Assembly: GCA_031372065.1 (NCBI GenBank)
Contig: JANMKN010000131.1
Coordinates: forward strand, 1-16,976
Direction of reading: 5' to 3'
Length of the DNA stretch: 16,976 bases
From: Abditibacteriaceae bacterium
GTDB lineage: Bacteria; Armatimonadota; Abditibacteriia; Abditibacteriales; Abditibacteriaceae
The position numbers were made by a program, and so were the translations under genes. Of the stretch, positions 2,952 to 16,976 are shown one piece after another. The notes below the pieces were generated by a model. That model worked only from the letters and a program-made list of their open reading frames with translations. It was not told the DNA's origin and did not search any database. The first letter of the stretch is position 1, and every line of letters begins with the position of its first letter.

Positions 2952-2984
2952 GATCTGCTTTGGACTACTTCCAACCCTATTTTC

Positions 2985-3173
2985 AGCACGTCCAAGCGCA
3001 AAATCGGCCCCGCGAACGCCGATAAAGGCCCCGCCATCGGCGTCCACGGCGCCGATATTCCCGTCCACGGCGCCGTGGACGGGAATATTGGCGCCGCTAT
3101 CCTCGTTCGCAGCACCGAGATTGGCCTTGGGAGCGCCATTTTACGGCTTTTGGGCCTGAATTGTCGGGTTTTC
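2985..3173. repeat. Degenerate 21-nt-period array with a central 50-bp near-perfect palindrome
   Basis: RGCNCS-type anchors (AGCACG, GGCCCC, GGCCCC, GGCGCC x3, AGCACC, AGCGCC, GGCCTG) every 21 nt from 2985. Bases 3047-3096 form a loopless palindrome, 24/25 pairs, centred at 3071/3072. Confidence 0.7.
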
Positions 3174-3223
3174 GAGAGCGCTGGCGTAGACTGGCATACT
3201 TTCTTGCACGACCAGAGCCTAAG

Positions 3224-4387
3224 TTACTGCACGAGGCGCACGCGTTCGCCAAAGGGGAATTGTTCTAACGCGAGGCCGCCTACGGTGACGACCCACAGCA
3301 CGGGGATTTCTGGCGGCTTCTCCGGGAATGTGCCATAGCCGTCAGTGAGGTAAATTGCCAGCGCAGTTTCATGCGCGGCAGAGTTTTCTTCTAACTTTTC
3401 AAAGAAAGGCCGAAAGCTGGTGCCGCCCCCGCCCACCGGCGGCGGCAGCGGGCCGTGTCCTTCGAGCCGATGCGGGCCGTTCAAAGCGGCGTCGGCGTAG
3501 TATAAATCGCAAAGTAGATGCGGATATGAGGCTAAAATGCCCTGCACTTCGCTCAAAAACTCGCGCATAATCTCGTCGCCAATCGAACCGCTGGTGTCCA
3601 CGCAAACATGGCAGCGCACCGATTCGCCCTGCAAAGCTTCGAGATACAAGCCGCGCCCCACAAAACGCCGATCATAGCCGGAAAAGTCCGTCGGCGTCTG
3701 CACCAGATAGCGCCATAGCCACGCGCGCCAATTCAAGCGGCCCGGTTCGAGCGAATCCAGTTCGCGGCGCATTCCCGACGGCACATCACCGTGCAAAGAA
3801 CGCGCAATGATCCGCGCCCGCTGCATGGCACCGCGCCAATGGCCCTCAATAGACACGCGCCGCATATCCTGCGGGCTGGTATTGCCGTCGCCGCCGGGCG
3901 AGGCTTCCAATAAATCGGACATTTTGAGCGGCGGCAGCTTCTCCAAATCGCGTTGCAGCAGTTCGTAGACCTCTTCGGAACTGTAGTGCGCCAAGCGGTC
4001 ATCGCGCATCCCGCCTACGGGCAATGCCGCGCCCGGTTGGGCGAGAATCATCCCGTTTATCACGATGTCGGCGGCGATATTCCACACCAAAGGGTCGCGC
4101 CTTCCGCGCCTTGTGCAGTGTCCGAGCGCCGCGTGCAACACTTCGTGCAATAGCAAACCGTCCTGCTCGGCGGGCGTGAGCGGCGCCCAGAAGTCGGGGT
4201 TGATAAAAACCGTCAAACCGTCGGTGGCGGCTGTCGGCACCATCCTCGTCACTTCGTAGCGGGCGAACAAAGCCAGCGCTGCGAGGAACGGCTGACGCGA
4301 GCGCAGTCGCAGCATCGAATGGCTGATTAACTGCTCCGCATTAGGCGCGAGTTCGGGGACTTCGACAGTCGTTTCGGCTTCGCTCAT
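3224..4387 (-). CDS. HEXXH metallopeptidase-like + vWA domain protein (DUF2201-like)
   Basis: TAATDG, LLLHEVLHAALGH (HEXXH), WNIAADIVIN; C-terminal vWA with VDTSGS (MIDAS), GGGTSF and YLTDGYG. ATGA overlap with the upstream ATPase. Confidence 0.9.
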   Translation of the reverse strand: MSEAETTVEVPELAPNAEQLISHSMLRLRSRQPFLAALALFARYEVTRMVPTAATDGLTVFINPDFWAPLTPAEQDGLLLHEVLHAALGHCTRRGRRDPLVWNIAADIVINGMILAQPGAALPVGGMRDDRLAHYSSEEVYELLQRDLEKLPPLKMSDLLEASPGGDGNTSPQDMRRVSIEGHWRGAMQRARIIARSLHGDVPSGMRRELDSLEPGRLNWRAWLWRYLVQTPTDFSGYDRRFVGRGLYLEALQGESVRCHVCVDTSGSIGDEIMREFLSEVQGILASYPHLLCDLYYADAALNGPHRLEGHGPLPPPVGGGGTSFRPFFEKLEENSAAHETALAIYLTDGYGTFPEKPPEIPVLWVVTVGGLALEQFPFGERVRLVQ

Positions 4388-5388
4388 GGCGCGAGAATCT
4401 TCTGATAATCGGCGAGAAATTCTTTTAGCTTGTCGTCTTTTTGCACATAAAGCGCAAAGGCGCCCATTTTACCAAGGGCGCGCATCTGCTTGAACAAATC
4501 CACCGCGTAAAGTTGCAGCCATTCGGCGGGCGCCTTCTCGACCAGCCACTTGAAACCGCGATAGCCGCGCTCGGCTTCCTTGGCGCGCACCGTCAGGCCG
4601 ATGGTTACTGCGTAGCGCGCCGATGGCTCGGTGGGAAAGGCGATGCGCTCGCCACCTTCGCCCGAAAGTATCGGCTCCAAGTCGGGCAAAACGCGGTAAA
4701 GCTCGATATACGATTGAAATTCCGTCGCCGTGGGCGTGCCGACCACCGATGCGACATCCAAACCGACGCCATGCAGTCGGCTCGCCATGACCCACGAACG
4801 CGGCGAAGGCCACGCCGGACGTTGCGCGTCGGTTTTGTGCAAGAGTTCGGGCCGAAAGGCCAGAAACGCGATGACTTGCTCATGCACATTGGTCGCCAGC
4901 GCGTGTGCTTTGAACGAATCCCAATCGGCTTCGACTTCGAGGTGCAAAAAACGATTGGCCAGAGGCGAGGGCATATCGAAAACCGCCGCGCGATCTTCCT
5001 TGCGATTGCCCGCCGCCCAAATAAACCAGCCCGGCGGCACGGTGTAAGAGCCAACGCGCCGGTCAAGCACCAACTGCTGCGCCATGCCCTGCATGGTTGG
5101 CGGCGCAAGGTTGAGTTCATCGAGGAACAACACGCCGCGCCCGGCACGCGGTAGAAACTCCGGCGGATACCAACGAGACAATCCATTTTCGGCGACAGGC
5201 AAACCACGCAAATCCGTCGGCGCCAGTTGCGAAAGGCGCAGGTCTATGAAATCCAAACCTTTGGCCTCGGCAGTCTGCGCCACGATGGAGCTTTTGCCGA
5301 TGCCCGGCGGCCCCCAAATCATCACGCTCAGTTTCAATTCGTTGTCAATTAAGGCATCAAGGTATTGGTTAAGGGCTTCAGGTGTCAT
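4384..5388 (-). CDS. MoxR-like AAA+ ATPase (typical DUF2201 partner)
   Basis: Walker A GPPGIGKS, DLRLSQ..PTDLRGLP, Walker B LFLDE, sensor-1 AAGNR, Arg finger PLANRF, PSPRSW. Confidence 0.92.
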   Translation of the reverse strand: MTPEALNQYLDALIDNELKLSVMIWGPPGIGKSSIVAQTAEAKGLDFIDLRLSQLAPTDLRGLPVAENGLSRWYPPEFLPRAGRGVLFLDELNLAPPTMQGMAQQLVLDRRVGSYTVPPGWFIWAAGNRKEDRAAVFDMPSPLANRFLHLEVEADWDSFKAHALATNVHEQVIAFLAFRPELLHKTDAQRPAWPSPRSWVMASRLHGVGLDVASVVGTPTATEFQSYIELYRVLPDLEPILSGEGGERIAFPTEPSARYAVTIGLTVRAKEAERGYRGFKWLVEKAPAEWLQLYAVDLFKQMRALGKMGAFALYVQKDDKLKEFLADYQKILAP

Positions 5389-5428
5389 GTAGATTCATTA
5401 TTTGTGCGTGGCGATGAGCGCTGAAAGG

Positions 5429-6967
5429 TCACAACGGCAGTTTCGCCTGCATCTCGCCGTAAGCATCGAAAAGTTCTAACTGCCCGCCACTTTCATCGGC
5501 AAATAAGCTGACAGCTTGATCGCCGCCCGGCGCTTGGAGCATGATTTGTCCGCCATCCTCGCGCGCACCAAAGGCGCCGCGTGGCGCGCCCGTGCGTCCG
5601 CAGACCATAACCATGCCACCCTCATCACCGGTGCCGATAGCGGCTTGCATCATACCTTCGCTATCGCAAACCTTCAAAGTGGCGCCGTTGTCTTGCATAG
5701 CTAATTGGGCCACTTGCTGATCTTTATCATTCTTTAGCGAGAGGCCGCCACCAAAAACACCGTTGTGTTCAACCGCGCCAATGCCAACCGCTGTTATGTT
5801 GTTTTCCATCAATAAAGACAAACGCCCGCCTCGTTCGTTGATGTCAAAGAGGCCGCGCGGCTGCGTATCTTTATCAAATAAAGCTAACGCGCCGCCGTTG
5901 CGGTTGAAAGTCAATTGCGCTTTCAATTGACCATCGTTGTCTTTTACGGTGACGGCACTGCCTCTATCGTGTCCCGGCATATCACCTAAAATCAAAACTC
6001 CGCTGTTCTTGGGGCCTTCAACCGCTAAAGTTCCTGCGCCTTTCATGGCCGTCGCAAAAATGACGTTCTTATCGTTTTTATCATTGAGTGCCAGACTGCC
6101 GCCCTCTGGCGAACAATTTAGCACCACCATAACCGGGCTGCTTTTACTGCCTTTTAGCTCAAGACGCCCGCCTTCTTTATCCACCAAAAGATAGGCGTGT
6201 TGGCCGCGCCGTCCGCGCGCTACGACTTTGCCGCCATCTTCATCTACACCAAGGATGACGGGCGTTTGACCATCGGCGTCCAACAACAGCGCGACGGGCC
6301 GATTATCGGCCACCGCCAAGGCAATACGAGGGCGCTGCTTGTCGTCGTTTAGGGTCAGGCGCCCGCCGTTTTTCTCGGCCATCATGCCAACGCGCGCTGT
6401 ATCGTTTTGGTCAATGACCTGAATGTTGCCGCCTTCTGCACCCGCCATCAGGAAGGCTTGCGGATTGCCTTGGGGGTTCAGCACGCTGACGGCGCCGCCT
6501 TTTTCCAAGGCGCGCACTGCGACGGCGGGTTTGCCATCCTCCCCAAAGAGGAAAACATGGCCGCGTTCTTTCTCGGAGCCGATTTGCACATGGACATCAT
6601 GTTGCGCGCCCCGTAATTCCAGATGACCGCCGTCATTGCGCATTTCGAGATTGACTTTTTCAGCTCCTTTGGTGTCACACAGATAGAGAAAACCACCAGT
6701 CTCGTCTTCGAAACTGAGTTCTGCCCGTCGTTTGCGATTGACATCCTCTACGGCGGGGTCTTCAATAATCAGCGACTGCACTTTGAGGCGCGCATAACCG
6801 ACGAGATGTTGCAGATCGTCGGGCAAGCCCAATGCTTGTTGGAGTGCACACATTTGCTCTGCTTGATGCTCAATTTTCTCCCGTAAAATCGTGATCTCAT
6901 CTCGCAAAGCCTCCATATCTCCAACGGATGCGTGGGCATTTTGCGTATCTGTGTTTGGTGTTTCCAT
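5429..6967 (-). CDS. Hypothetical protein: N-terminal coiled coil + ~19 tandem ~22-aa beta-type repeats
   Basis: 512 aa. Heptad-like MEALRDEITILREKIEHQAEQMCALQQAL, then repeated GGxLxLxDxxxxxxxxLxxxxx units to the C-terminus. AGGA RBS upstream; 19-nt and 40-nt gaps to neighbours. Confidence 0.8.
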   Translation of the reverse strand: METPNTDTQNAHASVGDMEALRDEITILREKIEHQAEQMCALQQALGLPDDLQHLVGYARLKVQSLIIEDPAVEDVNRKRRAELSFEDETGGFLYLCDTKGAEKVNLEMRNDGGHLELRGAQHDVHVQIGSEKERGHVFLFGEDGKPAVAVRALEKGGAVSVLNPQGNPQAFLMAGAEGGNIQVIDQNDTARVGMMAEKNGGRLTLNDDKQRPRIALAVADNRPVALLLDADGQTPVILGVDEDGGKVVARGRRGQHAYLLVDKEGGRLELKGSKSSPVMVVLNCSPEGGSLALNDKNDKNVIFATAMKGAGTLAVEGPKNSGVLILGDMPGHDRGSAVTVKDNDGQLKAQLTFNRNGGALALFDKDTQPRGLFDINERGGRLSLLMENNITAVGIGAVEHNGVFGGGLSLKNDKDQQVAQLAMQDNGATLKVCDSEGMMQAAIGTGDEGGMVMVCGRTGAPRGAFGAREDGGQIMLQAPGGDQAVSLFADESGGQLELFDAYGEMQAKLPL

Positions 6968-6986
6968 GTCTCAATCCTTTGCGTCT

Positions 6987-9464
6987 TTAGTGTGCGTCAT
7001 TTTGCGTCTTTAATTGCAACGTTTCGCGCGCGGCGGCGGCTACGGCAACGTTGGAATCTTCGGATAGGTAAGCCAAAATCTGTCGCGGCGCGCCCGCGTT
7101 GCGTGCCACGGCGAGGCGCTCCATCCAGCGACCTTGGAAAGCGGCCTTGCGCAGTATATCCTGCGCCGTTTCGGGATTGGAAAGGGCGCAAAGTCGCACG
7201 GTGACACCCTGACTGGTGGCAGCATCCTTCAGCATTTTCGCGCGGCGCGCAGTTTTTGCTTCAGCAGGTGTGTTCAGATTCTCTAAGGCGGCAAGGCGCA
7301 CTTTGGCGCTGGGATGTTGGGTTAATTCGGCCAAAAGCGCAGGCGGCGTGAGCGAATGTGCGGCGATAGAACCTAAAATCCCACTTGCTGCATTTTGTCG
7401 CGCGCGATGATAATCCGATTTTGCTGCCAATGCCAACTCAGCTCGCGCCGCCGCTTCCAATACTTCAGGTGTAACGGCCCAATAGTTCACGACTTGTTGG
7501 CGGATGAGGCGACTGTAATACCACTCTTTCTCTGGAAATTCCCATGCTTTGATTTGCAAGTCGGGAGGAAAAGCCAGCACCTCTTTGCCCCGTGCCCGTT
7601 CAAAGTTGCCATGATATATGAATGAGATTCGCGGATACCATCCTAAAAGTGGAATCAGAGCCTCCAGAACGGGACGCGTGAGTCTGTTATGATTTGCCAT
7701 ATCGTGCGCAATACTGGGAAAGCGTTCCAACAAAGTCAGGAACGCTTCATCAGGAACGAAATGATTATCAAAACCGTGACACATTCGTTTAGCTACATCA
7801 AGCGATAGTTCCTCTTTTGCCATTTGGATAAGAACATAACCGGGCGTTCGCTTGATTCCGGCTACTGCCGCGCGCACTTCGTCGCTCGGATCGCGCGATA
7901 GGCGCTCGAAAATCTCATCGGGAATGTCGCCTGCTAAAATCACGGCGACGCGAATATTGGGAGCTTCCGTATCGAGCAATGCCAAGCGCTCGGCGAGTGG
8001 CAGCTTCTCATTGCCCGCCGCACAATGCCGGACATAAGAATCGTTATCCCGTAAAAGCTGTCGCAATAGTTCCACGCTGGCAGAGGCACTTTGCGCGACG
8101 TTGGCACGTATGTGCGAATCGTTAAACGTGGCCGCTTCTGCAATGACTTCGTCCGGCACTGGCTCTTGATGAAATTGCTTACTTAACCACTCACGTCTTG
8201 CTTCTTTTGGTGTGAGTGGGGCATCTATGGCAGGGCACTCATCGTTTTCGTCATCGCGCTCACTCAATACCCGGTCAAAACGCACATAGCGATCAACTTT
8301 AATCGCTGGATTAACTGTTGTGCTATGGCGAACGTGCCATTCTACATCTTTTGACAAAGTGAGCAGGACATCACGCGGGCAATCGCGACGGCGGGCGATT
8401 TTAGAACGCACATCCTCATCGGCGTCCTTGGCTAACAAACGCAGCGTCGCTTCATCTGCTGCACGATTACGCGCTACGCTGAAACGCACGTCCTTGTGGG
8501 CATCAGAAGCCAAGCGCGCCAATGCCTGAATTGGGCAAGCGCTGTTTACCGCCACCGCCTCGCGCACGGCGGCGGAAGCATCCGCAGATAACTGTTCAAG
8601 TAAGCCCGACGGGCATTGTTTATTTTTTGCGACGGCTTTGCGCAATGCAGCATGGCCGGTTGAGGCCAAAGAAATCAAAGTTTGCGGTGGAGTGGAGGAG
8701 TTTTCTGCCACGCAACGACGCACAATGTCTGCTTGATGTAGTTCGGCCAGTTCTATCAGCGATTCGGGAGGTGTATTCGGATGGCGCGCTGCCAACTTGC
8801 GCGCGAAGGGGCCACCCTGAGCCAAGGCGACGAGTTTTTCCGGCGCCATGTCGGCTTTGCCTTTGCCAACACATTGCAGGGACGGATCCGCGCCCGCTTC
8901 GCGCATCCATAACACGCGTTCGCGCAATGGTTCAGCATCCGGTAGGGCACGAAGTGCTGTTCGCGCATACCCGCGCAAGCTGCCCACGGCACATTCCAAA
9001 GCAGCTTCCACAATCCAGTGCGGTGCCAGCCCTGAAGCCAGCAGTTCAGCCAAAGCCGCGCTGCCGGTGAGTGGCAATTCCGGCAGCGTGGCTTTATCTG
9101 CGACAGCGCCATTCGCTCGGTGCAGTCGCACACCTTCACGAATTTCGGCGTTGGAATGGCGCATCAGCGGCGGCAGAAATTCACGCGGCGGGTTTTCCAG
9201 TTTGAGAATCTGCCGCAGTGCCACAACGGGGAATTCAGCGGGCAGACCGGGGTTTTCCAGCAGCAGCAGCGGCAACACCGGATTGCGCAGCACAGATTCC
9301 CAACACCAGCGCGCCACATAGAGTAGCACATCGGTAGGCGCGTTCGGATTTTGGGCCACAAGACGCCCTATGTAACCCCGAAAGCGTGATAACTCACGCA
9401 ACCGCTCCGGTGTCGTCTCAGGATTCGTTGCTTCCTTGTGCAAATTATCATAGTAATCACTCAT
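6987..9464 (-). CDS. LRV/HEAT-like helical repeat protein (paralog 2)
   Basis: 825 aa. Repeats of type VRxAVAxNxxTPxxxLxxLAxD; N-terminal ATNPETTPERL...VAQNPNAP...NPVLPLLLLENP. ATGA overlap with paralog 1. Confidence 0.88.
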   Translation of the reverse strand: MSDYYDNLHKEATNPETTPERLRELSRFRGYIGRLVAQNPNAPTDVLLYVARWCWESVLRNPVLPLLLLENPGLPAEFPVVALRQILKLENPPREFLPPLMRHSNAEIREGVRLHRANGAVADKATLPELPLTGSAALAELLASGLAPHWIVEAALECAVGSLRGYARTALRALPDAEPLRERVLWMREAGADPSLQCVGKGKADMAPEKLVALAQGGPFARKLAARHPNTPPESLIELAELHQADIVRRCVAENSSTPPQTLISLASTGHAALRKAVAKNKQCPSGLLEQLSADASAAVREAVAVNSACPIQALARLASDAHKDVRFSVARNRAADEATLRLLAKDADEDVRSKIARRRDCPRDVLLTLSKDVEWHVRHSTTVNPAIKVDRYVRFDRVLSERDDENDECPAIDAPLTPKEARREWLSKQFHQEPVPDEVIAEAATFNDSHIRANVAQSASASVELLRQLLRDNDSYVRHCAAGNEKLPLAERLALLDTEAPNIRVAVILAGDIPDEIFERLSRDPSDEVRAAVAGIKRTPGYVLIQMAKEELSLDVAKRMCHGFDNHFVPDEAFLTLLERFPSIAHDMANHNRLTRPVLEALIPLLGWYPRISFIYHGNFERARGKEVLAFPPDLQIKAWEFPEKEWYYSRLIRQQVVNYWAVTPEVLEAAARAELALAAKSDYHRARQNAASGILGSIAAHSLTPPALLAELTQHPSAKVRLAALENLNTPAEAKTARRAKMLKDAATSQGVTVRLCALSNPETAQDILRKAAFQGRWMERLAVARNAGAPRQILAYLSEDSNVAVAAAARETLQLKTQNDAH

Positions 9465-12028
9465 GTCAGTGGCTCCTCAACTTCATCGGGCGCATCAAGC
9501 GCCGCTAACGTTTCGCGCGCTGCCGCTGCCACGGCGACGTTGGAATCGTCGCGTAATTCTTCCAAAATTTCGCGCGGTGCGCCCGTATTGCGCGCCACCG
9601 CGAGGCGTTCCATCCAGCGGCCTTGTTTGATGGCTTTGCGCAAGAGTTTTACATCGGCTTCAAGGCTGCTCAAGGCGCATAAGCGCACAGTGGCGCTTTG
9701 GCTGGAAGCGGCTTGGGGCAACAATGCTTTACGTCGCGCGGTTTTGGAACGGGTCGGCGTGTGCGGGTTATCCAACGCCGCCAAACGCACTTGGGGGCTG
9801 GAATGGCGCGTTAATTTCGACAGCAGCGATGGCGGCGTGCGCGGATGGCTGGCAACAATGCCCAGAACGCCGTCCGCCCAGCTTTGGCGGCGCTGCCACG
9901 AGGCACGTCGCTTGGCTTCTTGCTGTTGGAGTCGCGCGATTTCGACGATGGCTTCGGGCGTAATGGCCCAATATCTAAGAGCCGTTAAATGCAAACGCCG
10001 TTGCCAGTGATATTCTTCTTCCGGCAGTTCACAGATTTTTAAAATCGTCTCGGTAGGCCACGGCGTAAGAGTGCGCTTGCGGTAACCATGCGCGAACGAT
10101 TGATGCCAGAATAATCCCCGACGTTGCGAGGAGTTTAAATGCGGTAGTAGCACTTCCACGATGGCCGGCGTAAGATGGTCATAGTTCGAAATGCGGTCAG
10201 CTAAATCGGGCATCCGTTCCAAGACAGTCAGAATCACGACATCGGACACGCGTTGGTCGAACGAGATTTCGTAGAGAGCAGAGAACATATGTTGTAAAAC
10301 GCTTTTCTCCGTTTCCTCGCGTGCCATGCGCAAACGAACTTCATTCGGTGTGAAGCGACTGCCCGCGACGCGCAAGCGCAGCCACTGGTTTTCGTCACGC
10401 GACATGACATCGAAGACTTCATCCGGCATATCACCGGCTTCTATGGCTTCGGCGCGCACCGAAGCACTTTCATCCGCGCAAAGTTGCAGGCGCAGTTCGC
10501 GTGGCAAGAGCGGGTTCCGCGCTATCGAAGAGCGCACCTGCCGATCTTCATCGTGCAGGCGCGAAGCTAACATTTCTGGCGTCAGTTGCTTGTCGTAACT
10601 GGCGATGCGCCGAATTTTGGCACTGGGGTGCGCCAGTGCTTCGCGCAGAATTTCCATCGGCACCGGCTTGGCCCTAACCACATGGAGCATACGCGCCTTT
10701 TCTAATTCTTCGGGCGTGGGCGGCGCATCCATCGGTTTGAGCGAGGCATTCGTGTCCTCCCAATCCCGAAAAGCTTTATCCAAGACACGCTGCCTGTAGA
10801 TTTCGCTATCACCCGGCGCTGTCGGATTTTCGGCAGCTCTCACTGCCACCAAAAACTCTTTATCCGCCATCAATTTGAAAAGCAAATCCTTTGGGCAATC
10901 GCGCCGCTTGGCGATGGTTTCGCGCACGCCATCATGAGCGTCTTGCGCCAGCACGCGCAGGGTCGCTTCGTCCGAACGGGAATTGCGCGCTAAGATTTCC
11001 CGCACATCGTGATACGGATCGGACGCCAAGCGTGCCAAAGTGCCCGCCGCGCTGCCGCGATGCGCCGCCACGCTACAGCGCACCTCCATCGAAGCATCGC
11101 CCGCCAACTGATCGAGTAAGGCCGAGGAGCAACTTTTATTTTTCGCGACGGCTTTGCGCAGCACCGTATTCCCGGTGGCGGCCAGCGAGATGAGCGTTGC
11201 GGAAGGCGTGCTGGGATTGGTCGCCGCGTAGCGCCGCGCGATTTTGTCTTGATGCAATTCGGCTAATTCCGACAAAATCGCGGGCGGCGTGTTGGGATGT
11301 TTGGCGGCCAACTGGCGCGCAAACGGCCCGCCGCGCGCCAGCACAGCGAGCCGTTCGGGAAGCATGGCTTGATTGGCCTTCGTGATATATTGCAAATGCG
11401 CATCGGCACCGGCTTCTTGCAACCACGCCACGCGCTCTTGCAATGCGGCATCGCCGAGGCGTTGCACAGCGGGCAAGGCATGACGACGCAGCGTGCCCGA
11501 CGCCGATTCAAGAGCCGATTGCACAATCCAACGCGGCGCCAAGTCCATCGCCACCAGTTCGGCCAACGCCGCGCCGCCGTGAATCGGCACATCGGGTAGC
11601 GTAACGGGCGCAGGTTCACCGCTTTGGCTGCTCCGATTCCCTCGATTGGCGCGATGCAAACGCGCCGCTTCGCGGATTTCGAGGTTCGGATGGCGCACCA
11701 GTGGCCCAAAAAACTCGCGCGGCGGCTCTGCCATTTGCAAAATCTTGCGGAGCGCCAACACGGGAAACTCCGCTGGCAAACCGGGATTTTCGAGCATCAG
11801 CAAGGGCAAAACCGGATTATTTAACACTTCCTGCGTATAGTTTCCTGCCAGCCACAGGAGAATGTATTCCGGTGTATTGGGATTCGACGCGACGGCCCGT
11901 TGCACGCGCCGTCCCCAACTCGCCAGCCAGCGAAGTCGCTCTGGCGAAGTTTCAGGATTAGTGGCTTCGGCGACGAAATCGGCATCATCAAGAAAATAGT
12001 GCCTGCGCCGTCTTTTTTTTCTTGCCAT
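9461..12028 (-). CDS. LRV/HEAT-like helical repeat protein (paralog 1)
   Basis: 855 aa. Same repeat type and same N-terminal ATNPETSPERL...VASNPNTP...NPVLPLLMLENPGLPAEFPV block; shared C-terminus GRWMERLAVARN...DSNVAVAAAARETL. Confidence 0.88.
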   Translation of the reverse strand: MARKKRRRRHYFLDDADFVAEATNPETSPERLRWLASWGRRVQRAVASNPNTPEYILLWLAGNYTQEVLNNPVLPLLMLENPGLPAEFPVLALRKILQMAEPPREFFGPLVRHPNLEIREAARLHRANRGNRSSQSGEPAPVTLPDVPIHGGAALAELVAMDLAPRWIVQSALESASGTLRRHALPAVQRLGDAALQERVAWLQEAGADAHLQYITKANQAMLPERLAVLARGGPFARQLAAKHPNTPPAILSELAELHQDKIARRYAATNPSTPSATLISLAATGNTVLRKAVAKNKSCSSALLDQLAGDASMEVRCSVAAHRGSAAGTLARLASDPYHDVREILARNSRSDEATLRVLAQDAHDGVRETIAKRRDCPKDLLFKLMADKEFLVAVRAAENPTAPGDSEIYRQRVLDKAFRDWEDTNASLKPMDAPPTPEELEKARMLHVVRAKPVPMEILREALAHPSAKIRRIASYDKQLTPEMLASRLHDEDRQVRSSIARNPLLPRELRLQLCADESASVRAEAIEAGDMPDEVFDVMSRDENQWLRLRVAGSRFTPNEVRLRMAREETEKSVLQHMFSALYEISFDQRVSDVVILTVLERMPDLADRISNYDHLTPAIVEVLLPHLNSSQRRGLFWHQSFAHGYRKRTLTPWPTETILKICELPEEEYHWQRRLHLTALRYWAITPEAIVEIARLQQQEAKRRASWQRRQSWADGVLGIVASHPRTPPSLLSKLTRHSSPQVRLAALDNPHTPTRSKTARRKALLPQAASSQSATVRLCALSSLEADVKLLRKAIKQGRWMERLAVARNTGAPREILEELRDDSNVAVAAAARETLAALDAPDEVEEPLT

Positions 12029-12039
12029 GAGAAAATAAG

Positions 12040-12197
12040 CCCCTCACCCCTCCTGCCCAGAGGGCACCCGCGCTTCGCGGGGAGAGGGGTGTCTAAAGGC
12101 ATACGCTCCGAACTCTTTCAACCGGGCAAGAGCGTAATGCACCAGACACCCCTCTCCCCAGCGCAGCGGTCGGGGGAGAGGGGCCGGGGGTGAGGGC
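12040..12197. repeat. ~158-bp palindromic element: two inverted boxC-like units around a ~58-nt spacer
   Basis: Left unit CCCCTCACCCCTCC...GGGGAGAGGGG (~12040-12089); right unit CCCCTCTCCCCAGCGCAGCGGTCGGGGGAGAGGGGCCGGGGGTGAGGG (12149-12196). Spacer self-complementary (TGTCT/AGACA, GCATACGCTC/GAGCGTAATGC). Confidence 0.8.
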
Positions 12198-12214
12198 TGT
12201 GAGCAACGTAGTCG

Positions 12215-13195
12215 CTACGGTGCGGCCAGTCCGCTGTTGCGCTTGCCCTCGGCCACGGTGCGGCCTGTGGAATCGCGCAGTTCCACGTCGTCAACTTCGC
12301 CTGTCACCACGATATTGGGCACTTCGAGGCTTTGCATATTTCCTATGGGCGCGTAGGGAAAGGTCAGTTCGAGCGCGCCTTCTTTGAGAAAAACGCTGGC
12401 CACTGGCACATCGGCGGGCACCACGAACCACAACGTAATGCCGGTTAAGGTGGCTTGCCAGTTGAAATCAAACTTGGGCACATTGTCGCCGCCTTCCGAC
12501 GGAAAAATGCTCGGCAAACTGGCCGCCAGTGGCGTGTTGGGAAACGACAGGCGCACCGCGTTGGAATAGGATTGCAAACGCGCCACAATCGAATCGTCTT
12601 CGCGCAATTCGACGCTGACATCGCCGAATTTAGCCTCGCGCTCTGCGCGTAGGGCATTGAGTTTGGCGCTTTCCAAGGCGTCAATGGCGCGCGTTTTTTC
12701 CAAAATGAGGTCGTGTGCGTCCTGCAAATCGGCCAAAGTGAAGACACCCATCGTCATGGTGGCGGGTGGAGTTTTGGCCGCGTTGACGAGCGCCCAATGG
12801 TCTATAAAACGGTGCAAAATATCCAGATAATTGGCCGGATAAACCGCGCCGATATTGGGCACCGTGCTACCAAGAGAATGCTTGCCGCCCAAAAAAGTGC
12901 GCACCGCCGCTTTGTAATTCATCAGATAAAACCACACACCGGGCGGTTGGGTGTTGTCGGTGCCGAAAATCGCATCGCGTTCGGCGCGCAAGGTAGGCAA
13001 CTGGATTTCGACGGCACTGGTGATGTTCTCGCCGAGTGTGTGATATTCATCGAACAGGGCGAATAGTTCGGTTTGTCCGAAACCCGGTTCAATCATCAGT
13101 GGCGTAGCGGGTGGCAATTCGGCGTTGACCAGCGGATAATGGCCGCGAAACTCATTCATCACCGTGGTGCGCTCGGCTTCGTTCAAGCGTGGCAT
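12215..13195 (-). CDS. Hypothetical protein: two tandem ~115-aa helical modules plus a C-terminal beta-rich domain
   Basis: 326 aa, GAGGAG RBS 6 nt upstream. Internal duplication FRGHYPLVNA/FIDHWALVNA, LRAERDAIFG/LRAEREAKFG, YKAAVR/YSNAVR. Confidence 0.85.
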   Translation of the reverse strand: MPRLNEAERTTVMNEFRGHYPLVNAELPPATPLMIEPGFGQTELFALFDEYHTLGENITSAVEIQLPTLRAERDAIFGTDNTQPPGVWFYLMNYKAAVRTFLGGKHSLGSTVPNIGAVYPANYLDILHRFIDHWALVNAAKTPPATMTMGVFTLADLQDAHDLILEKTRAIDALESAKLNALRAEREAKFGDVSVELREDDSIVARLQSYSNAVRLSFPNTPLAASLPSIFPSEGGDNVPKFDFNWQATLTGITLWFVVPADVPVASVFLKEGALELTFPYAPIGNMQSLEVPNIVVTGEVDDVELRDSTGRTVAEGKRNSGLAAP

Positions 13196-13245
13196 GACAA
13201 ACTCCTCGTAACCTTGGATAAAATAGAAGACTTTTTGCCGGAGTC

Positions 13246-13309
13246 GGACACTTCATAATATGTCCCTGCGGGTCTCAAGATTTTCGACGGGACACGCTAC
13301 AAGGTGTCC
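13246..13309. promoter_or_regulatory. Two GGACA-N10-TGTCC inverted-repeat (operator-like) sites
   Basis: GGACA cttcataata TGTCC (13246-13265) and GGACA cgctacaagg TGTCC (13290-13309), 44 nt apart, 50-115 nt upstream of the 326-aa gene. Confidence 0.5.
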
Positions 13310-13369
13310 AAAAAGCGTCCGACAACGTAACACGAACCCTGGCAATAGGTCAACTGGTGTTTATTATTA

Positions 13370-13436
13370 TGGCGAAAAGGGGAGAGTTTTGGCAGGCAAA
13401 AATCCACTTTTTCTGCCAAAACGCCCTTTCGAGCCA
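13370..13436. repeat. Imperfect hairpin
   Basis: Perfect 10-bp GTTTTGGCAG (13386-13395) / CTGCCAAAAC (13413-13422), extended imperfectly by TGGCGAAAAGGG / CCCTTTCGAGCCA. Confidence 0.55.
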
Positions 13437-13479
13437 ATTATTTCCCGATTTTCACTCCCCAAACGCCCAAAATTCCGCC

Positions 13480-13790
13480 CAAAACGCCTCGCATCGCCCA
13501 CAATTTGTCTGTGACGCCGCACAATCTGCCTGTGACACCACACGAGACCTTTGGTATGGCGCACGAGACGATTAGGACGGCACACGAGACGTTTGGTATC
13601 GCGCACGAGACGCCTGTGATGGCAGACAATTTCAAATTGTGCGCCGTCCCAACCGTCTCGCGCGCCGTCCCAACCGCCTCGCGCCTCATCACAGACAACT
13701 TGCGCGCCCTACCAAACCCATCGCGCCCCATCCCAACCACCTCGTGTGCTACCCCAAACGATATGCGAGCGATACCAGCCATTATGCCCA
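13480..13790. repeat. Head-to-head (palindromic) array of degenerate 21-nt repeats
   Basis: Left arm has 6-7 units (e.g. ACGAGAC-GTTTGGT-ATCGCGC); right arm has ~7 units of the reverse complement (e.g. GCGCCGT-CCCAACC-GTCTCGC); centre ACAATTT-C-AAATTGT at 13626-13640. Confidence 0.85.
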
Positions 13791-13873
13791 CCGCGCTACC
13801 CAATTATGCCAACTTATTTTTTAATGTGTAGCAAAAACGTATCACACGCCAAGCCGCGGCCAAAAGGAAACTA

Positions 13874-14983
13874 TTAAAATCGGCCTATTAATGATTGGGG
13901 CGGCTTTTCTTTGCCGCCATCAGTGCGAAGGGCCTTAACAACACTTTCAAATTGTGCCTCAAACTTGCTGTTATCATTTTCCCAGCCGGTAAAATCAGCA
14001 GCCAATCGTGAGCGCACTTGGTCAGCTTTGCCATCTTGCCATTGGAATAAATAACCATCAATATTCAAAGGGATAAGCGCCAACACTTTTTTGTTGTATT
14101 GTTTCTGCAACTGCTGTTCTTTCACAAAGGCTTTGTTGATTTCGTTATTTACCCACCAACTGCGCAACGACGCTTCCGAACAACAAAGTAACACCTTATC
14201 CCACAAGCGAATGCCTTCATCTACCACATCGAAAATGTTATCGCCGGGATTGAGTTGATGTTCATCCAACCAACAACGAATGCCGCGTCCTTGTAATTGG
14301 TCATGTAAACGACGCGCAAACGGTTTGTCTGCATGACTGTAGGAAATGAAACAGGAATAAAATTGAATTGGTTGATTAGTAAATGAAGGAAGATAGGTAA
14401 TCAAGTCTTCTGGCACACCACAACCGCGCCAAAATACATTAGGGACTTTGCCATAATTATAAATCAATGTTTCTATATCAAGGTTAGAAGGTTGTATATG
14501 CCTAACTTCGTTTAATCCGTTTGCGTTCTCAAAATCAAGTCCAGCTAAAATAGTCGATCCCAATCGTGTATCATTCCACTGGCTGGTGGCAAGAGGAAGA
14601 CTCTTTAGAGTCGCAAATCGAAAATCTACTCCCCGAAAATCTACTCCTGTGCATTGTGACCACGCAATTTGTGCGCCCTGAAAATCCACTCCTCGAAAAA
14701 CGGCATCTGTGCATACCGTTCCGATCAAGAAAGATACGGGAAGTAGTGAACCAGTAAAATCACTTTTTGTGAGGTTTGCTCCCTCAAGTTGCACGTTCTT
14801 CAAAGTAGCGCGGCATACATTTGCTCCAGATAAGTCAGCATTACGAAAGTTGATGGCCTCAGCCTTCAAGTCGTCTAATGTTGCACCAGACAAATTAGGA
14901 TTGATCTTAACATTGTCTGCTCGCCATTGATTCCAAACATCAACGCCCTGCTTCAAAATTTCAACGTGTTCTGGATTTGCCAT
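13874..14983 (-). CDS. Pentapeptide-repeat + TIR (TIR_2-type) domain protein
   Basis: MANPEHVEILKQGVDVWNQWR N-terminus, A(D/N)LxG-type pentapeptide repeats, then FYSCFISYSHADKPFARRL...CWLD...SWWVNNEI (putative catalytic Glu). Visibly more AT-rich than flanking genes. Confidence 0.92.
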   Translation of the reverse strand: MANPEHVEILKQGVDVWNQWRADNVKINPNLSGATLDDLKAEAINFRNADLSGANVCRATLKNVQLEGANLTKSDFTGSLLPVSFLIGTVCTDAVFRGVDFQGAQIAWSQCTGVDFRGVDFRFATLKSLPLATSQWNDTRLGSTILAGLDFENANGLNEVRHIQPSNLDIETLIYNYGKVPNVFWRGCGVPEDLITYLPSFTNQPIQFYSCFISYSHADKPFARRLHDQLQGRGIRCWLDEHQLNPGDNIFDVVDEGIRLWDKVLLCCSEASLRSWWVNNEINKAFVKEQQLQKQYNKKVLALIPLNIDGYLFQWQDGKADQVRSRLAADFTGWENDNSKFEAQFESVVKALRTDGGKEKPPQSLIGRF

Positions 14984-14992
14984 AATCGTTCT

Positions 14993-15131
14993 TTAATCTG
15001 CTGCTCCAAAATGCTCATCGCCGCTTATTGTGCGCACTTTGCAATAGCTTTTTATTAAAGCTATCGGGGAATTCATTGAAAGGCGGCTTCCGAGCAATAA
15101 AAATGTTGGTGTCAAAGGTAACGCTGGGCAT
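14993..15131 (-). pseudogene. Internally deleted PIN/VapC-like toxin remnant
   Basis: ATG 15131 gives MPSVTFDTNIFIARKPPFNEFPDSF (PIN beta1 'hhDTNhh' motif), then a stop at 15015. A shifted frame reads IKSYCKVRTISGDEHFGAAD* to 14993. Total only 139 nt. Confidence 0.55.
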
Positions 15132-15145
15132 CGGCTTTTAAAATT

Positions 15146-15355
15146 CTAATAGCCTTCTCCGTTGCGCTCGGCAATGCGCTTCCATGCTTTCAACAAAGCC
15201 TTGCCACCTTGGGCCGCGTGTTCTGTCTTGGAGATGCGGCCATTTTGTGGAGAGTCCTTTATTGTGCCATTCGACCCAATTTTGCCATTGCTTCCTTCCT
15301 GCTTAAAGGAAGATTTAGCCGTCTTTTCTGTCACTTTCGTTGCTTTGGTTGCCAT
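15146..15355 (-). CDS. Small basic protein, possible antitoxin partner of the PIN remnant
   Basis: 69 aa, GAGGG RBS upstream, low-complexity N-terminus and a C-terminal amphipathic helix (KALLKAWKRIAE). Ends 14 nt before the PIN-like start. Confidence 0.6.
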   Translation of the reverse strand: MATKATKVTEKTAKSSFKQEGSNGKIGSNGTIKDSPQNGRISKTEHAAQGGKALLKAWKRIAERNGEGY

Positions 15356-15408
15356 TTTTTTCCCTCACATCAATTTTAGCACTTCACAAGCACTTTTGAG
15401 GCAGATTC

Positions 15409-16734: not shown

Positions 16735-16846
16735 TTACTTAGTGATGTTGATAGGAAGAGCATAACTTTTTGTTTAGGTTACGGAAATGTTTACCCTGCG
16801 CTGTGTGCTTACGATAGGCGCTGTAAAGAGCGACTACGTCGCTCGC

Positions 16847-16976
16847 TCCCCTCACCCGACCTCTCCCCCGAACGCTACGCTGGGGAGAGGGGTTTTTCAC
16901 TCCGATGCTTCTGCCCGTTTAAATCGGCAAAACGCGTATTAGGCAAGTTCTCCTCTCCCCAGCGTAGCGTTCGGGG
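16847..16976. repeat. Second copy of the boxC-like inverted-pair element (cut off by the window end)
   Basis: CCCTCACCCGACCTCTCCCCCGAACGCTACGCTGGGGAGAGGGG (to 16892), ~58-nt spacer, then its reverse complement CCTCTCCCCAGCGTAGCGTTCGGGG (16952-16976). Confidence 0.8.

Follow-up and report, generated by a model that had tools for sequence, protein, structure and literature searches.

A head-to-head array of degenerate 21-nt repeats upstream of an orphan gene in an Abditibacteriaceae bacterium, and the genome-wide class to which it belongs

The array and its neighbouring genes

The window, that is, the whole stretch of 16,976 nucleotides analysed here (assembly GCA_031372065.1, contig JANMKN010000131.1), contains an array of 6+7 units of 21 nt in two convergent arms, which lies about 280 nt upstream of a gene encoding a protein of 326 aa and reading away from the array. 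The features of the locus are listed below.

12215..13195, minus strand: cognate orphan gene, 326 aa; predicted two helical repeats and C-terminal FN3-like beta-sandwich, net charge -16
13366..13395, minus strand: sigma70-like promoter match, by consensus only, in the interval from array to gene
13388..13422, no strand: inverted repeat between array and gene, overlapping the -35-like hexamer and without a good U-tract
13479..13499, plus strand: degenerate, weak seventh left unit; this edge is common to a gene-less copy on contig C261
13500..13625, plus strand: left (gene-proximal) arm of six 21-nt units starting at 13500, 13521, 13542, 13563, 13584 and 13605
13626..13640, no strand: dyad centre ACAATTT-C-AAATTGT with its axis at 13633, made of the unit's first heptamer, 1 nt and the inverted heptamer
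13641..13787, minus strand: right (gene-distal) arm of seven 21-nt units, the same repeat read on the minus strand
13803..13830, minus strand: extended -10-like match directed towards the array; possibly incidental, given that its hexamer is similar to a degenerate unit

The array was confirmed as real and far beyond shuffled sequence. At lag 21 its identity reaches 0.62, where the best lag of any of 300 dinucleotide shuffles gave no more than 0.37, and the inverted 21-nt lattice that the first-pass annotation had expected of a reverse-complement comparison reaches 0.58 against a maximum of 0.30 (again 300 dinucleotide shuffles). Folding was likewise compared with shuffles and both strands exceeded them (z of -4.65 for the plus and -7.15 for the minus strand). 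Unit alignment bore out the six left units and the centre at 13633 that had been proposed from the letters alone, and it extended the minus-strand reading of the right arm as the same unit to seven units ending at 13787. The register had been described as free of indels, and 0 were found in the left and 0 in the right arm; the arms had been described as other than simple mirror copies, and cross-arm identity is 0.60 at the mirror offset and 0.51-0.65 in other registers. The proposed 3x7 sub-repeat had to be given up, as lag-7 and lag-14 identities in the window array (0.23-0.29) equal background; a period of 7 is seen only in the pooled conservation profile of its 13-member family and in the heptamer centre. 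Misassembly, which had been named as a possible source of error, is contradicted by contigs from a second sample of the same study, covering 13386-13675 and 13725-14215 with zero differences. One contig of a possible source run also covers 12167-15400 with zero differences.

The neighbours of the array are the orphan gene, a pentapeptide-TIR gene and LRV-repeat genes, and the region from 3224 to 14983 of the window is conflict-like in content (DUF2201/vWA and AAA ATPase genes, two LRV-repeat paralogs and the pentapeptide-TIR gene). The 326-aa protein was without a match in Pfam, NCBIfam, PADLOC and PHROGs, and 13 other homologues with 37-57% identity were retrieved from databases. Its model, with a pLDDT of 90, consists of two helical repeats and a beta-sandwich. 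Foldseek with this model returned nothing at E<=0.001, and VIA-align gave a best Z of 9.0, with generic helical matches and FN3 domains at Z of about 7; no DNA-binding fold was matched in these fold searches. Two candidate identities were rejected, namely the DGR chain 8ub7_B, whose Z of 7.1 is indistinguishable from background, and DUF6261 (PF19775, an Atlas lead at 0.86), to which the genome has no match at E<=0.1. A search of the genome contigs with the single 326-aa protein gave one weak, irrelevant match. A single low-depth contig of run X3 carries 16 base differences from the orphan gene within 12348-12524; the 13 that are listed change nine codons, seven of them with a new residue, where the FN3-like domain begins. 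These differences may be diversifying, or may stem from another paralog.

Genome-wide identification and classification of 21-nt arrays

A sequence-blind scan detected 261 loci at lag 21, versus 0-24 at each other lag between 10 and 40. Short, 3-periodic and 7-periodic loci were then removed, leaving 227 arrays, most of which have 8-13 units; at least three inverted units occur in only 30 of them. The arrays were grouped into 106 unit families at a cross-score cut-off of 40 and 122 at 50, a cut-off of 20 having been dropped for 40 because it chained 192 arrays together. The period is kept across unrelated unit families, and each family retains its own consensus across loci. Arrays are enriched in convergent gaps and near stop codons, their edges are more degenerate than their centres, and the dyad symmetry of the unit is modest (53% vs 35%). 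Of 170 pairs of family members, 7 were collinear in unit order at p<=0.01 and 19 at p<=0.05; most unit orders therefore look scrambled. Pure 7-nt tandem arrays are separate from this class (G000 contigs C4, C69, C189, C225, C280, C320, C351, C357 and C405).

The unit family of the window comprises 13 arrays, of which only the window's own adjoins an orphan gene, and four of which lie near contig ends. The head-to-head form is a trait of this family, because 12 of the 13 members have convergent arms at a heptamer dyad (14-15 nt in ten, 14+21 nt in two). A second head-to-head 21-nt array, with a different unit and without a linked gene, is located at 2959-3174 of the window. It has 63-nt inverted arms at 2992-3054 and 3068-3130 and is flanked by a DUF2201 gene and a tRNA-synthetase-like gene that we take to be proS.

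Linkage between arrays and orphan genes

Four close paralogs of the 326-aa gene each have an upstream periodic array built of a different unit. Upstream lag-21 identity is at least 0.55 in three of the four, the fourth being a 20-nt array judged by eye, and as background the lag-21 threshold was passed upstream of 173 of 4286 other genes. At homologue loci in other genomes (22 scored of 23 found, one partial match being left out), upstream lag-21 identity is at least 0.5 in 13 of 22 and downstream in 0 of 21. The positive loci are 9 of 10 in G041, 3 of 3 in G003 and 1 of 2 in G001, with 0 of 7 in G054, G004 and G038 together; the array is absent at 9 of the 22, including all four in G054. Among metagenome sequences, arrays were found at two of three distinct loci that retain upstream DNA.

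Clustering of flanking proteins resulted in nine orphan families with 67 members; their number is to be read as about nine, and their union in one superfamily would be conjectural. An array on the expected side is present at 45 of 63 members with enough flank versus 4% of other genes, a count that is partly circular since the families were seeded from array neighbours, which does not apply to the paralog and cross-genome counts. The genome holds 46 gene-linked arrays. Unit similarity and protein similarity were unrelated (Spearman 0.02 over all 94 within-family pairs), and units are in common only in the 10 closest protein pairs, where common descent explains the sharing. Most orphan families are acidic (pI 4.5-6), only the FN3-bearing ones were matched in PHROGs, to tail proteins, and three orphan proteins had no plasmid or phage match.

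Other periods and positions were also recorded. A 310-aa FN3 subgroup (G000 C14:13245, C159:31541 and C219:10485) has upstream arrays of 41-42-nt period rather than 21; a family of 155-160 aa (G000 C234, C239, C382, C43 and C69) has a 21-nt array downstream in 5 of 7 members; and upstream of L175 (G022:C138), which is distantly homologous to the 232-aa family, the period is 22 nt, not 21.

Gene-less copies and comparison with relatives

Of the 56 unit families with several members, 29 include a gene-linked array, in most cases just one. No master was recognised for the other 27 families and for 116 of 185 unlinked arrays, where 185 is the count before four further linked genes were found and 181 the number of gene-less arrays afterwards. 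Gene remnants lie within 600 nt of 2 of the 181, and flank DNA in common with the master was detected for 3 of 75 gene-less arrays. Four sites were compared with congeners; synteny was broken at two of them, and at two orthologous gaps with intact synteny the array is absent in 3 of 3 congeners each. One of these loci is a member of the window family, and at one empty site two congeners have just 21-30 nt between the flanking matches. The neighbour genes are presumably zwf and hemC, which they resemble.

Sampled relatives yielded no true arrays in 400 kb of G002, 291 kb of G003, 75 kb of G001, 200 kb of G012 and 200 kb of G054; G041 had four in 400 kb, kept after inspection of 7 raw loci by eye. 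At the density of this genome, about 15 per 400 kb would be expected. Four profile searches found no orphan-gene matches in G002 and G012 and at least 14 in G041, while G003 has four or five orphan genes, three of them with arrays, and 0 gene-less arrays in its 291 kb. We infer that array gain in this lineage is simpler than repeated loss.

Coding DNA just past an array matches the unit in register more often than expected (top three phases in 17 of 57 cases, p=0.002), perhaps through target choice or because array edges are blurred. A REP-like flank is common to four members of the window family. Hitch-hiking with REP elements was rejected genome-wide, as REP-like words occur in 8 of 105 versus 154 of 2424 gaps, with no association. 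A REP-like palindromic element, abundant here and in three congeners, occupies 12040-12200 and 16829-16976 of the window.

Helical phasing and conservation of register

One turn of DNA corresponds to 10.5 nt, and 21 bp to two helical turns. Conservation power at 10.5 nt was 0.255 for 33 gene-linked and 0.179 for 70 gene-less family representatives, with nulls of 0.10 under column permutation and 0.13 under block permutation (reached by 0 of 150) and a period-3 power of 0.07-0.09. A first test, of 10.5-nt power against the 21-nt harmonic, gave p=0.12, a non-significant excess. The window array alone has no clear 10.5-nt peak (0.20, exceeded at two shorter periods), and when its family is pooled the peak is at 7.

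Register is held in gene-less and linked arrays alike at about 22% divergence from consensus. Phase shifts per substitution amount to 0.003, and gap openings per mismatch to 0.038 versus 0.187 in a REP-like control, although the array scan favours indel-free arrays. Changes from C:G to G:C are in excess (0.085 vs 0.055), and A/T columns are the more conserved in the window family. The first-pass annotation had suggested selection on spacing rather than recent slippage, and the rarity of phase shifts and gaps, together with the 10.5-nt phasing, supports this.

A proposed docking array for a cognate protein

The array-gene link, the gene-specific units, the 10.5-nt phasing, the kept register and the dispersal are all observed. 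The explanation that we put forward, and to which we give an even chance of being right, is that the window array is a phased DNA docking array for a cognate protein, with satellites seeded elsewhere. The array would then be the non-coding half of a two-part module, consisting of about twelve 21-bp units directly upstream of a helical-bundle/FN3-like gene. It would act as a stretch of double-stranded DNA with one docking site per turn, all on one face, for a protein that is most likely the product of the neighbouring gene. By binding next to the -35 region, this protein could control the orphan gene, and the head-to-head form would suit a two-fold symmetric complex growing outward from the centre. 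Array-only copies may be seeded at new intergenic sites with the help of the bound protein and host recombination, and each gene would thereby act as master of a satellite set of its own, in the way that RAYT does for REPINs. For the copying step, a search for a nuclease, recombinase or reverse transcriptase found none.

The main difficulty for docking is the apparent nature of the protein, which is acidic (net -16) and, judging from its model, without a known DNA-binding fold or active site, together with the many families that seem masterless. Also counted against it are the lack of relation between unit and protein similarity, the 9 of 22 homologues without an array, the G003 genes that have arrays where 291 kb hold no gene-less one, the lack of a clear 10.5-nt peak in the window array itself, and its G-U pairs, which favour a sense-strand RNA.

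Alternative explanations

A host protein that senses DNA geometry, such as a nucleoid-associated protein or an activator, might read the phased site instead, leaving the orphan gene as a regulated passenger and the satellites as side products. We consider this fairly unlikely. It would account for acidic orphan proteins without a DNA-binding fold, for paralogs about 40% identical that carry unrelated unit sequences and for the same period in unrelated families, and excerpts of PMC8161180 do suggest nucleoid or transcription roles for 20-21-nt repeats; however, array load tracks gene load in the sampled relatives, each unit family keeps its own consensus across loci, and the 10.5-nt signal is stronger beside genes.

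In a further scenario, which we judge unlikely, transcription of the array along the gene's strand would yield a long hairpin or repeat RNA, and this RNA would bind the protein or neutralise it, much as in type III toxin-antitoxin systems. In the window copy the minus strand has the folding z of -7.15, G-U pairs on the gene's sense strand number 140 versus 49 over all cross-arm pairs and 21 versus 8 in mirror register, an extended -10 match lies at the distal end, and a palindrome precedes the gene. Of the 29 inverted arrays that were folded, none has a larger strand asymmetry than the window copy, and among 10 gene-linked inverted arrays the sense strand gives the better fold in 7 (p=0.064). 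Several results speak otherwise: most arrays are single-armed (at least three inverted units in 30 of 227), mirror pairs show no excess over other cross-arm pairs (0.655 vs 0.631, p=0.18, 24 arrays), distal -10 matches over 41 loci are balanced (12 sense vs 11 antisense), terminator-like hairpins number 2 of 41 sense versus 3 antisense, and ToxN-type and Rfam matches are absent, four sub-threshold Rfam matches to plant and animal miRNA hairpins being taken as chance. The G/T skew of the window array, moreover, continues into its flank. A -10-like hexamer lies between array and gene at 27 of 41 loci in sense and 16 of 41 in antisense orientation, and orientation to local transcription was not significant (11:4, 5:9). 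The RNA hairpin proposed at first pass finds support in the window copy, which folds better on the gene's sense strand, and is weak as a general function; the strand asymmetry and G-U excess keep an RNA role alive for this locus.

It is very improbable that the array encodes a heptad-repeat peptide, although frames are open across it on both strands (13505-13831 plus, 13438-13803 minus), 21 nt make seven codons, and homologue P0007 is annotated with a heptad N-terminal extension. A genome-trained coding model scored these frames at +0.01 and -0.17 versus 0.49 for the neighbouring gene (genome-wide medians of -0.12 for arrays and 0.37 for genes), open frames in arrays barely exceed those in permuted units (1.84 vs 1.60), no period-3 signal was found in the coding scan or the conservation spectrum, and there was no Pfam match. 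By these computations the window array is apparently non-coding, contrary to the translated heptad-repeat ORF that the first-pass annotation had allowed for.

Functionless slippage satellites or an assembly artefact would fit lineage-specific arrays with edges more degenerate than centres, found preferentially in convergent gaps and close to stop codons, places that tolerate insertions, but are hardly credible given a second sample identical base for base over the covered parts, one dominant period, scarce indels at 22% divergence, the C:G to G:C excess (0.085 vs 0.055) and a gene link that recurs in other genomes.

Comparison with known systems

Constant-length, non-coding tandem repeats of 20-21 nt, in species-specific and unrelated families within each bacterial genome, were described by Subirana and Messeguer (PMC8161180), who note that the repeat length equals two DNA turns; at most about 30 arrays per genome appear in their table as excerpted. 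The window array and its class agree with these satellites in constant 20-21-nt units, several families, non-coding nature and species specificity (PMC8161180; PMC6749651, in the parts available), and differ in number, with 227 per genome here. The partner gene, the head-to-head families, the empty-site comparison and the 10.5-nt conservation reported here are not named in the excerpts of PMC8161180. Our verdict is that the array is a member of a published, unexplained repeat class whose protein partner and master-and-satellite layout are undescribed; in the openly available literature searched, no paper linking such arrays to these genes was found. The first-pass annotation had overlooked the linked gene, the genome-wide class and these published satellites. 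Its statement that the array is not CRISPR, iteron or REP holds as regards membership.

The RAYT-REPIN system (10.1101/2021.07.10.451892, as excerpted) is similar in having a gene beside cognate repeats and gene-less cognate repeats in extragenic space, and the missing plasmid or phage match of three orphan proteins is a further likeness. Here, in contrast to the excerpted account, the partner is no HUH/Y1 transposase and has no Pfam or NCBIfam match, the repeats are phased and tandem rather than palindromic doublets, no link to high-copy REP-like words exists, families are far more numerous, and their turnover is apparently faster. Seven Y1 matches lie elsewhere in the genome, three with an array within 2 kb. 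At G000 C343:2635-3704, a 22-unit array comes after a Y1 transposase gene that has palindromic flanks, and seven bases of the array core recur in those flanks.

Iterons and plasmid centromere or operator arrays (P1, R6K, R1 parC, pSM19035 parS) combine spacing of about two turns, a position at the promoter of the adjacent gene, and direct and inverted arms. The window array resembles them in all three respects, whereas it has no adjacent Rep, ParA/ParB or ribbon-helix-helix protein, and the arrays here are chromosomal, highly degenerate and present in hundreds of copies.

With type III toxin-antitoxin systems (PMC3401426, in part), the window locus has in common a repeat array, a palindrome and a small gene. 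It differs from that partial description in its degenerate 21-nt unit versus 36 nt, in lacking a ToxN/CptN/TenpN-type match in Pfam, NCBIfam and PADLOC, in having no terminator or distal promoter as a rule over 41 loci, and in its many gene-less copies. CRISPR was rejected, as the degenerate units are contiguous and without spacers, no Rfam match exceeds the gathering score and no cas gene is among the scanned neighbours. Diversification of the diversity-generating retroelement kind was rejected as well, there being no RVT_1 match in the 94% complete genome and A/T columns being the more conserved.

Implications

It is still an open question in the literature why bacterial satellites hold on to a period of 20-21 nt as their sequences change. 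With a partner protein now named, and with one master array and its twelve cognate satellites in a single genome, this question becomes testable. In the widest form of the docking proposal, which we hold only tentatively and think rather less probable than its failure, dozens of non-enzymatic helical proteins would each carry and propagate their own two-turn DNA barcode, forming a bipartite chromosomal replicator without a transposase and supplying the missing partner that would account for constant-length 20-21-nt satellites across many bacteria. Should binding prove cognate, the arrays and their genes would provide many natural orthogonal protein-DNA array pairs and would suggest that intergenic DNA spreads by a route not yet recognised.
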